A stretch of 26,140 bases of DNA from a virus (Duplodnaviria; Caudoviricetes), in the IMG/VR virus record IMGVR_UViG_3300022178_000090, positions 1 through 26,140 of that record, one strand, 5' to 3'. Made by a program: the position numbers and the translations under genes. Below are positions 22,738-24,932 of the stretch, piece by piece (position 1 is the first letter of the stretch; the number at the start of each line of letters is the position of its first letter). Below the pieces are notes generated by a model, which saw nothing but the letters and a program-made list of their open reading frames with translations, was not told the DNA's origin and searched no databases.

Positions 22738-23505
22738 TCAAGCCCTCTTGAATGCTGAGTTAATCTGGTCTCGGATATGCGCTGGCATCGGAACAGCTTT
22801 CTTCCTGTCAGCCATAATCTCTTTGAGCGCGGCGTCCTGACCCGCTGGGGCTGGCACAGTAGTCCGAGCAACGTCAGCGGCAACTTGTGCAAACGTCTGT
22901 TTTTCTTTCACCCATTCAGCGTTAAACCCAGTCCAGCCCCTAGCGCATATTTCTGCCAAGGCGTCCTCAAGTGACCAGCCAGCCTTTTCTGCTTGGTTGC
23001 GAATCTTCGTGATGACCGTATCGCTGACAGGAGCCTTCTTAGCTTTGCGCTGTTTGACAAAATCATCCCAAACAGATTGTGATACGCCGTCAGGCGGTGT
23101 ATTACTTGGTTTATGGTTATTGGTTATTGGTTTATGGTTAGGTGGCGATTCGTCAACGACTTGTGCACGGTTCGTGCGATTCTCTCTACGCTTCGCCTCC
23201 CTTTCAATGGCAATCGTTTTGTTTTTGTCTGCCTTTGAGTGGTAGTCAAGTAATTCAGCAAGGATTCTTTCTTGCACATACTCGCCATCTTCACCGAGCG
23301 TGAAGAACCGACTTAAGACAAATTTGACAGCCTCAATCTCGGCTTCTGTGCTTGCCCATGTCCATTCAATTGCTTGCTCAAGCGTTGGGAACTTTTCACG
23401 GTCGTAACACGAATCAATAAGAAGCGTGTACGCGCCGTGCTGGAGCATGGTCAAGCGACCAGTCTTTTTAGCGTAGTCGCCAAGATTTCTTTTGTAGTAG
23501 TGCAT
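22738..23505 (-). CDS. Replication initiator (DUF1376/YdaU N-terminal domain, lambda O analogue)
   Basis: MHYY....GDY...T..L...HGAY.LL.D..Y..E motif, low-complexity linker with DNA repeats, C-terminal W.DF...RK.KKA....RGW.GF..EW. AAGGTGAG SD before ATG 23505. Confidence 0.85.
   Translation of the reverse strand: MHYYKRNLGDYAKKTGRLTMLQHGAYTLLIDSCYDREKFPTLEQAIEWTWASTEAEIEAVKFVLSRFFTLGEDGEYVQERILAELLDYHSKADKNKTIAIEREAKRRENRTNRAQVVDESPPNHKPITNNHKPSNTPPDGVSQSVWDDFVKQRKAKKAPVSDTVITKIRNQAEKAGWSLEDALAEICARGWTGFNAEWVKEKQTFAQVAADVARTTVPAPAGQDAALKEIMADRKKAVPMPAHIRDQINSAFKRA
23107..23141. repeat. Five tandem 7-bp repeats, putative origin iterons inside initiator gene
   Basis: TGGTTTA TGGTTAT TGGTTAT TGGTTTA TGGTTAG, located in the inter-domain linker as for lambda ori within O. 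Confidence 0.7.
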
Positions 23506-23538
23506 ATTGCTCACCTTTTCATCGCTCCCTAGATGAAA

Positions 23539-23605
23539 GAAACGACGGCGGGAGAGGGAGGAACTCCATTCGGTCTGCTCATGACTTCAGACCTAGCCGC
23601 GTTTC
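23539..23605 (-). ncRNA. Three-way-junction structured RNA, C4/c4-2-like phage riboregulator candidate
   Basis: Minus strand closing stem GAAACG-CGGC/GCCG-T-CGTTTC, P2 GGTCTG/CAGACC (loop AAGTCATGAG), P3 GGAG/CTCC (loop TTCCTCCCT). Begins 5 nt after a TAGAAT -10-like box. Family resemblance is from memory, not a search. Confidence 0.65.
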
Positions 23606-23608
23606 AAA

Positions 23609-23797
23609 CTATTCTACATCAACAACTTGATGTTGAAGCAAGGCTTCGTATTCTTTTTTAAGAAAATGAATCCAGTCGACCAAAGCGTCGGCTTGGACAA
23701 CCCAGTCTTGCTCTTTAAAGTCATTCATAAAAGCAACCTTGCCTTCGCCACTTTCGTTGCTAAAGCTAAGTTTTGCGTATTGGTATGTGTGTCTCAT
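23609..23797 (-). CDS. Hypothetical protein (62 aa)
   Basis: ATGA-coupled to the DUF3310 gene, AGGAG SD. Confidence 0.7.
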   Translation of the reverse strand: MRHTYQYAKLSFSNESGEGKVAFMNDFKEQDWVVQADALVDWIHFLKKEYEALLQHQVVDVE

Positions 23798-23997
23798 TTT
23801 TGTCTCCTTTGAATCTCGCGTTGTAAGTACCAGACTGCCTTCTCCAAGTCTTCAATGGCGTCGTTTTTGAGGTCGGCGCGCCAGATGTACTTGACAGCAT
23901 TGCCAAGGCAGAAGTTCATATGCTCGGTTATGTCTATGCACTCAACGTGGCTGGGGTGAGCCATGTAGTGCGCTGGGTTGTTTACTGGGTCGTGCAT
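23794..23997 (-). CDS. DUF3310 family (T7 gp1.7-like nucleotide kinase family) protein
   Basis: DPVN.P.HY......ECID......F.LGNAVKYIWRA..K....EDL.KA.WYL.REI signature; GGAGG SD. Confidence 0.88.
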   Translation of the reverse strand: MHDPVNNPAHYMAHPSHVECIDITEHMNFCLGNAVKYIWRADLKNDAIEDLEKAVWYLQREIQRRQK

Positions 23998-24173: not shown

Positions 24174-24932
24174 TTAAATATCCTTAGTTAAGATTTGCCA
24201 AGCTGTTGCTGCCACTTCTGGAACTTGCCCGTTTCCACAGGCTTTAACTCTGTCCAATCTTGAGGCCATCCCATCATCCATTCCGAGAAATTCGCTGGCA
24301 AATGACTTCCAGTCATCAGTCGATAAGCACTTGTTAGCTTCGCTCCAAACTCCGTGCCAGTTTTTTGACTTGTCCTCACAAATCTTTTGCCTGTATAAGT
24401 TATCCCGCTTGTTTGGCCTGTCATGTGGTCTGTTGCTACGGGAGTTGGCCACCAACCAAAATCGTTCCCTTCTATGGGGTGCGCCAACGAAATCTGCTCC
24501 CACAATACCCCATCTTGCATCAAACCCCAATTTGGAAAGGTCTGCAAGCACTCTGCCAAGTCCGTTATTAACGAGCATTGGGGAGTTTTCCACAAAAACG
24601 AATTTGGGTCTAACTTCGCCAATAACCCTCCCCATCTCTCTCCATAATCCACTTCGCTCCCCGTCAAGTCCTGCGCCTCCACCTGCGGCTGACAAATCTT
24701 GGCATGGAAAGCCGCCAGATACGACGTCAACAATTCCTCGCCACGGTTCCCCGTCAAAGGTTTGTACGTCATCCCATACTGGGAAAGGCGGGAGAAGTCC
24801 GTCATTTTGTCGGGCGCACAGTACGCTTGCTGGGTAGGGTTCCCACTCGACTGCACAGACGGTTCGCCATCCAAGCAACTTGCCCCCAAGTATTCCTCCA
24901 CCAGCGCCTGCGAATAAAGCCAACTCATTCAT
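24174..24932 (-). CDS. C5 cytosine DNA methyltransferase, alpha polypeptide
   Basis: Motif I LFAGAGG, IV GGFPCQD, VI ENS, VIII H.RER, X GNGQVP. Only 252 aa and no recognisable motif IX. Confidence 0.92.
   Translation of the reverse strand: MNELALFAGAGGGILGGKLLGWRTVCAVEWEPYPASVLCARQNDGLLPPFPVWDDVQTFDGEPWRGIVDVVSGGFPCQDLSAAGGGAGLDGERSGLWREMGRVIGEVRPKFVFVENSPMLVNNGLGRVLADLSKLGFDARWGIVGADFVGAPHRRERFWLVANSRSNRPHDRPNKRDNLYRQKICEDKSKNWHGVWSEANKCLSTDDWKSFASEFLGMDDGMASRLDRVKACGNGQVPEVAATAWQILTKDI
24188..24928 (-). CDS. Alternative-frame beta polypeptide of the C5 methyltransferase
   Basis: 246-codon open frame nested in the alpha gene, with ATG 8 nt from the AAGGAGG SD. C-terminal WPTP.A.D and LPANFSEWMMGWPQDWT resemble motif IX. 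Confidence 0.75.
   Translation of the reverse strand: MSWLYSQALVEEYLGASCLDGEPSVQSSGNPTQQAYCAPDKMTDFSRLSQYGMTYKPLTGNRGEELLTSYLAAFHAKICQPQVEAQDLTGSEVDYGERWGGLLAKLDPNSFLWKTPQCSLITDLAECLQTFPNWGLMQDGVLWEQISLAHPIEGNDFGWWPTPVATDHMTGQTSGITYTGKRFVRTSQKTGTEFGAKLTSAYRLMTGSHLPANFSEWMMGWPQDWTELKPVETGKFQKWQQQLGKS

Follow-up and report, generated by a model that had tools for sequence, protein, structure and literature searches.

An int-alpA-type leader RNA ahead of a phage DUF1376 gene: a covarying palindromic loop, two downstream partner sites and a possible gene-dosage sensor

Introduction

The C4 RNA of phage P1 (Rfam RF01695) is a small structured RNA derived from the very transcript that it controls, in which it has two complementary sites, and RNAs of the C4/CI type are recognised by their RNase P processing from a precursor. 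In the plasmid repZ/repA pseudoknot leaders (IncI, IncB; PK-repZ) a leader loop pairs near the ribosome site of the initiator gene, control being exerted by a counter-transcribed antisense RNA together with a leader peptide. A third structured RNA, int-alpA, whose name implies a position near integrase or alpA genes, reportedly stems from the Weinberg 2017 survey. The word 'alpA' is absent from the main text of that survey, and in the literature searched, beyond which the survey's supplement lay, int-alpA is catalogued without known function and no mechanism was found for it.

According to the accessible parts of the sources, the CI RNA of phage P4 is cut from inside a precursor and has targets on both sides (PMC4825925, PMC3632133), and a short terminated form of IsrK, from the Salmonella prophage Gifsy-1, exerts its effect in trans, on the read-through mRNA of IsrK itself (PMC4825925). 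Palindromic kissing loops are described, likewise in accessible excerpts, for HIV-1 DIS, MoMuLV GACG and OLE L9.3 (PMC7357161, PMC5874298, bioRxiv 10.1101/2024.12.08.627333); the retroviral GACG loop forms a two-pair kiss (PMC5874298, PMC7357161), and in the OLE RNA switching between GGCC, GAUC and AGCU marks an intermolecular kiss observed by cryo-EM (bioRxiv 10.1101/2024.12.08.627333). Natural functional RNA dimers are rare, in the words of the part available (PMC7357161).

The leader RNA considered here precedes a DUF1376 gene in a 26-kb phage record of 26,140 nt, the whole of which was analysed and is called the window. It resembles C4 and CI in being a small structured RNA from the transcript presumed to be controlled, with two complementary sites in that transcript, and differs from them in lying at the 5' end with both shown sites downstream, in having no covariance-model match and in being carried by phages mostly without lysogeny genes; its position 5 nt past a -10 box (the gap between TAGAAT and the three-way junction) leaves no room for an upstream target in its own transcript, although RNA reading through from upstream may contain one. 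With the repZ/repA leaders it shares a loop that matches a site by the initiator ribosome site, whereas it has no Rfam match to them and carries a palindromic loop for which an antisense RNA would have no need. The likeness to IsrK, as far as the accessible text of that source extends, is that of a phage 5' RNA whose short isoform would set the translation of the read-through mRNA, but IsrK is an activator that works by displacing a strand over an upstream ORF, and no palindromic kiss is described in that text (PMC4825925). What HIV-1 DIS, MoMuLV GACG and OLE L9.3 have in common with the leader, again from partial sources, is a loop, self-complementary over 2-6 nt, by which two RNA copies are joined; GACG tetraloops as in MoMuLV occur in the leader family, as does the palindrome switching known from OLE. 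Those three join genomes or large non-coding RNAs, whereas here the loop would belong to an mRNA leader and stand alongside a second loop that matches the ribosome site.

The window and the layout of the leader

The window, of about 75% completeness, carries tail, capsid, portal, terminase, NinG, NinB, DUF1376 and methyltransferase-like genes on its - strand; an ERF gene lies on the + strand. The initial annotation had placed a replication initiator of the DUF1376 type next to the leader; the gene, with its ATG at 23505, matches Pfam PF07120 (E 1.4e-21) and, in PHROGs, both primosomal protein and replication initiation O-like families, the names on which the designation of its product as a replication initiator rests. 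Upstream of it, at 24174-24932 (-), two long frames overlap on the same strand, one (252 aa) a C5 methyltransferase by Pfam and the other (246 aa) belonging to PHROGs methyltransferase families.

Every feature named in that annotation lies where it was placed, on the - strand (Table 1). Of 135 family members, 130 have a TAnnnT box within the 17 nt searched upstream, with a single spacing in 89; the TAGAAT of the window is not among the predictions of a sigma-70 promoter scan. The promoter spacer holds an inverted repeat (23617-23636, ACATCAA-4-TTGATGT), a possible operator, and such spacer repeats show a modest enrichment (35/123 vs 13%), ATCAA..TTGAT itself being seen again in 15 of 123 distinct upstream regions. 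Folded alone, the junction reaches -24.4 kcal/mol. The P2 loop consists of three purines, the palindrome UCAUGA (TCATGA, 23584-23579) and one further purine, and the P3 loop includes CTCCCT (23560-23555). The U-rich tract that follows has 6-7 U per 8 nt in 117 of 134 leaders and 5 in the remaining 17; a terminator scan of the window did not list it among its predictions.

Table 1. Features of the leader and of the gene downstream, in window coordinates
Feature	Position	Strand	Basis or remark
-10 promoter box TAGAAT	23611..23616	-	sequence; TAnnnT box common in the family
int-alpA-type three-way junction, long-P2 variant	23539..23605	-	Rfam, fold, covariation
P1 of the junction	23605-23596 paired with 23549-23539	-	
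P2 hairpin, predicted intermolecular kissing site	23572..23593	-	palindrome switching, adjacent-column changes, background control
P3 hairpin	23552..23566	-	variable recognition loop UUCCUCCCU at 23563-23555
U-rich tract, P1 3' strand and beyond; possible leaky terminator or trimming end	23532..23543	-	
Site 1 (AGGGAG), predicted cis pseudoknot partner	23525..23530	-	perfect P3-loop complement
Local hairpin displaying site 1	23517..23538	-	-5.3 kcal/mol; lineage-specific
Site 2 / Shine-Dalgarno (AGGUGAG)	23510..23516	-	second P3-loop complement, one bulged base
DUF1376 / O-like replication-initiator gene, 255 aa, presumed regulated gene	22738..23505	-	Pfam PF07120, PHROGs

A single-sequence fold of the leader is within chance (z -1.03; 27 of 200 shuffles equally stable); the support for the leader comes from its relatives, in which the junction and the loop complement covary. 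In the junction strands themselves (23567-23571 and 23550-23551, -) the window lineage has GAAUG/CC and 133 of 137 members have GAAAA/CU, an A-U to G-C double change which, as one event, hints at a junction pair.

Conservation and int-alpA membership

Against the Rfam int-alpA model (RF02996) the junction scores 28.0 bits (E 8.8e-4) over model positions 1-71, that is the full length, which falls short of the gathering cut-off of 35.8 bits. At gathering level Rfam gives no match anywhere in the window and just 2 in 20 related loci, both of them short-P2 copies. The window copy has the same junction as int-alpA, with the same CUAG, GAAAAG and CCUG strands; its low score follows from a P2 that is longer than in the Rfam model (6-7 bp with a loop of 8-10 nt, vs about 4 bp and 5 nt). 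The short-P2 relatives exceed the cut-off in 10 of 20 cases and match below it in 6 more, and our model R1, built mostly from long-P2 copies, also retrieves them. Because the short-P2 copies pass in this way, the window junction is best regarded as an int-alpA variant with a long P2, lying under the formal threshold. The integrase or alpA neighbourhood that the family's name implies is not what surrounds these copies: the downstream gene has a DUF1376-like start in 109 of 137 long-P2 members, and an integrase is present in 2 of 33 records. The structure line of the Rfam family includes no pseudoknot, second site or intermolecular pairing, all three of which are proposed here. Membership of the C4/CI group, with which the initial annotation had drawn a parallel, was not borne out, the region 23300-23800 having no match to isrK, C4 or c4-2 at E<=10 and int-alpA being its best match.

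The same annotation's structured leader fared better. Relatives of the initiator are encoded at 80 IMG/VR loci, 72 of which were searched after 8 near-duplicates had been left out; model R1, itself built partly from these same 72 loci, places the element upstream on the same strand in 54 of them, 44 times directly before the gene and 10 times farther up, ahead of a different gene in the same run. A further 240 loci came from two pattern scans. The patterns fix the linker strands, which are therefore conserved by construction in these loci, and place no constraint on P2, P3 or the downstream leader. Aligned in 68 rows, the copies pair in 90.6% of cells, and both-sided changes are seen at 15 of the 22 tested pairs, above what shuffled and slid controls give. 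These comparisons confirm the int-alpA-type leader as a real element, conserved 5' of the initiator gene.

The P3 loop and its two downstream sites

In the window, sequence complementary to the P3 loop had been pointed out close to the ribosome site of the initiator; covariation between the loop and the sequence downstream was examined across the family. From 157 matches, 142 of them unique, 137 members were usable, 5 having been dropped for broken stems or want of a start codon, and these hold 50 distinct P3 loops. Loops and sites were compared using one member per distinct loop (n=50), kinship beyond identical loops being ignored, and site 2 was sought in the last 15 nt before the start codon. 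With site 1 the mean Watson-Crick run is 5.60 (permuted 3.61), and runs of at least 5 contiguous bp are formed by 46 of 50 cognate combinations vs 15% of non-cognate ones; with site 2 the mean is 4.74 (permuted 3.42), and such runs occur in 24 of 50 vs 11%. For neither site did any of 20,000 permutations reach the observed mean. The short-P2 form replicates the result, at site 1 in 38 of 39 and at the second site in 34 of 39 at >=4 bp. That the P3 loop pairs both with site 1 and with site 2 is shown by this comparison across the family. The second complement, bulged and lying on the Shine-Dalgarno sequence, is an addition to the earlier account.

Mean pairing energies are -8.75 kcal/mol for site 1 and -7.02 kcal/mol for site 2; in the window they are -9.5 and -5.8 kcal/mol, and site 2 with the anti-Shine-Dalgarno motif gives -6.9 kcal/mol. 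Site 1 ends 12-24 nt upstream of the start codon and in 88 of 134 leaders begins just 4-5 nt beyond P1. In 99 of 134 leaders site 2 shares bases with the Shine-Dalgarno pairing, and in the other 35 it lies clear; it is bulged in 24 of 50, it falls below 5 contiguous bp in 26 of 50, and some of its duplexes amount to only about -3 kcal/mol. The second hairpin which the initial annotation had drawn around site 1 is present in the window but is not conserved, a stem enclosing site 1 being found in 17 of 134 distinct leaders vs 12% of shuffles, that is at chance level. A conserved second hairpin whose loop would meet the P3 loop was for this reason rejected.

A palindromic P2 loop

The remark that the P2 loop is self-complementary turned out to concern the most informative feature of the leader. 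The loops were collected as 166 unique instances from 321 sequences, genome-collection hits being excluded, and comprised 36 distinct forms, from which 4 longer than 11 nt were dropped. A palindrome of at least 4 nt is present in 24 of the remaining 32, vs 10.4 +/- 2.4 in shuffles (0/20,000), and takes ten cores: GATC, AGCT, AATT, TGCA, CATG, GCGC, CGCG, GGCC, TTAA and TCGA. Such palindromes occur in 4 of 73 P3 loops. The 8 distinct loops without a 4-nt palindrome include the common TGCT type, which has a U-U mismatch, and tetraloops, which occur in four forms; in TAGC, TTGC and GACG the last two bases are self-complementary.

Among the 68 aligned rows, both-sided change affects the two innermost pairs of the palindrome in 36 and 23 rows, the second of these pairs lying at adjacent columns, and the central adjacent columns of the loop switch jointly between A-U and G-C (40 and 23 rows). 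Neighbouring bases being unable to pair within one strand, this covariation points to RNA-RNA pairing between molecules. A second copy of the palindrome core as a partner in cis was considered and ruled out, there being no excess of such copies downstream (0.36 vs 0.39). Predicted self-pairing is very weak in some loops (-0.8 kcal/mol for the AATT type), and one cross pair, AGCT with the TGCT type, is predicted to be stronger than both self pairs. Across the family the comparison shows the P2 loop to stay self-complementary while its letters change, and the leader RNAs probably form homodimers through these loops. The covarying palindromic P2 loop is a new point for int-alpA-type leaders; no dimerising int-alpA loop was found in the literature searched, though the Weinberg 2017 supplement may mention one.

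The palindrome might instead act as DNA, as an operator or methylation site past the promoter, or be a neutral product of template switching in an inverted repeat. GATC, AGCT, CATG, GGCC and GCGC are typical methylation or restriction words, and the window has two methyltransferase-like genes. We nevertheless hold this to be highly improbable, since the P2 stem tolerates G-U pairs and the core changes freely, since 1-3 unpaired purines are retained 5' of the palindrome, and since the tetraloops hold no more than a 2-nt self-complementary end, like that of the retroviral GACG kiss; moreover, the other hairpins of the same loci have palindromic loops in just 18% of cases (216/1202), vs 66 of 73 P2 hairpins in the same scan.

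A further possibility is that the leader works in cis only, the P3 loop of one mRNA alternating between an on state at site 1 and an off state at site 2 under the influence of folding kinetics, ribosome traffic, a protein or a ligand, with P2 dimers, if any, serving something else, for example RNA stability. Such a switch would agree with the covariation of both sites with the loop of the same molecule and with junction strands that are nearly invariant, like a binding pocket, this invariance being partly fixed by the search patterns. What makes it unlikely in our estimation is that it leaves unexplained why P2 is self-complementary over ten cores despite their avoidance genome-wide (the window under-uses GATC, AGCT, CATG and GGCC, with observed/expected ratios of 0.23-0.49), and that no trigger is evident, the same leader serving initiators and HNH nucleases.

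Modularity, extra copies and gene context

P2 cores and P3 loops mix freely, 83 combinations occurring in 137 members, and 18 of the 21 P3 loops with several members are found with at least 2 P2 cores. Two or three copies of the leader are present in 6 of 50 whole records, and the four extra copies whose genes were scanned all precede HNH nuclease genes. In the 5 records readable in full (the second copy of G031 being excluded), co-resident copies have different P2 loops and different P3 loops; one record, G047, has two copies with similar P3 loops. The HNH genes at L482:175-672, L475:176-679, L476:176-700 and L472:174-698 each have their own -10 box and int-alpA-type leader and encode HNH_3 domains, some with AP2 or NUMOD4; gene, box and leader together apparently constitute a portable expression cassette. 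One bacterial genome (G052) holds two long-P2 copies (L484:1500-1600 and L486:1500-1600) before unrelated genes, with different palindromes, TAGCTA and TCGCGA.

Among 33 related records, neither a tyrosine integrase nor an S24 repressor is matched in 31 (30 of the 32 near-complete ones), and resolvase and ParA are matched in none. HTH_3 matches occur in 10 of the 33, above cut-off only in the two records (G028 and G034, short-P2 carriers) that encode both integrase and repressor. Most carriers thus look non-integrating, to judge by gene content, and this scarcity of lysogeny genes weighs against the RNA-based prophage immunity that the initial annotation had envisaged and towards the metering of dosage-sensitive genes. 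In an immunity of the C4/CI kind, the small RNA of a prophage would silence the initiator of an incoming phage of the same loop type, and in favour of it are the high diversity and modularity of loops seen among close relatives, as well as the lysogeny genes of the two short-P2 records; the P4 CI RNA, too, has two pairing partners within its own transcript, according to the part of the source available (PMC4825925). Besides the gene content, the lack of any C4-family match, the position of both sites downstream and the copies that precede HNH genes render this very unlikely.

Occurrence, RNA data and other leaders

The strict pattern matches about 1,500 IMG/VR stretches and a looser one about 6,000, estimates in which chance matches are included. 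In bacterial genomes the pattern hits were mostly chance, R1 scoring at 5 of 100 loci tested (120 fetched); one of these loci, from a Betaproteobacteria MAG, is followed by a DUF1376-like gene, and model R2 matches in 5 of 151 genomes of that MAG's order. The cultured phage records searched contained no real match. Of the words, 6-10% occurred in four RNA runs, and in 2 of 3 RNA runs compared contigs of relatives, which show neither ends nor strand, cover the leader. One contig of 99 nt ends at 23599, near the predicted start, and another extends upstream, both being assembled and strandless.

A different structured leader was seen before DUF1376 initiators at L023:2375-2500 (+), L028-L030, L033, L045, L060-L062, L064 and L068. 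By eye it has the nested pseudoknot order of an HDV-like ribozyme, with two bases at the position of the catalytic strand, followed by a U tract; 16 of its 31 predicted pairs are both-sided in 7 sequences, and the best E against Rfam, for L023, is 0.66. Records G040-G042 and G044 have this leader and no int-alpA-type copy, and the record of L068 has one elsewhere. Here an uncatalogued motif possibly replaces the int-alpA-type leader. A third hairpin-rich leader, with repeated GTACCAG/CTGGTAC, precedes the same gene at L005:2350-2500 (+) and L071:2350-2500 (+).

A possible dose-sensing brake

We propose, at about an even chance of being right, that the leader is a dose-sensing brake, in which a second RNA docks through a P2-P2 kiss and occludes the ribosome site. 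Transcription would begin at or just before P1, and on a lone mRNA the P3 loop would be occupied by site 1, which is transcribed first and is the stronger on average, leaving the Shine-Dalgarno sequence at site 2 free and the initiator translated. Since all 134 leaders have a U-rich tract after P1, termination or trimming there could yield a short RNA: leaky termination or 3' trimming would release a stable species of about 70 nt that has both loops and neither site. As template and RNA accumulate, the short RNA would kiss the mRNA leader P2 to P2, the free P3 loop of the docked RNA would cover site 2 and translation would be switched off, the two loops of a dimer thus serving the two tandem sites. 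The palindrome type together with the P3 loop would decide which RNA silences which gene. Copy or dose control of the initiator is plausible; that docking represses is what we infer, whereas IsrK, the tested precedent, activates.

With the direction reversed, a lone mRNA would be off, its loop resting on site 2, and a docked RNA would bind site 1 and free the ribosome site, so that the synthesis of initiator and HNH nuclease would have a threshold or timer. A cell that contains several genomes is where HNH nucleases are of use, a point in favour of such activation, and the evidence for the dimer and for the two sites supports it too. Site 1, so close to P1 in many leaders, may be too near for pairing in cis, and IsrK itself works in the activating direction, as the accessible part of its description has it (PMC4825925). 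The earlier synthesis of site 1 and its greater average strength speak the other way, and an initiator that needs many RNA copies would suit a single infecting genome less well; on balance we regard activation as decidedly unlikely.

Returning to the brake, its extension to the family is advanced more tentatively still, namely that int-alpA leaders at large may be RNA-only concentration sensors, composed of a kissing dimer, two recognition loops on tandem sites, of which one is the ribosome site, and an orthogonal code of palindrome by loop. If they are, thousands of phages would count their own genomes or transcripts and so limit the synthesis of initiators and homing nucleases without a protein repressor, the family offering natural orthogonal variants. 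A leader of 70 nt that controls translation through pairing between its own copies would, if true, be a new kind of gene-dosage sensor, and would explain how the initiator is metered in lambdoid-like phages that have neither CI nor integrase.
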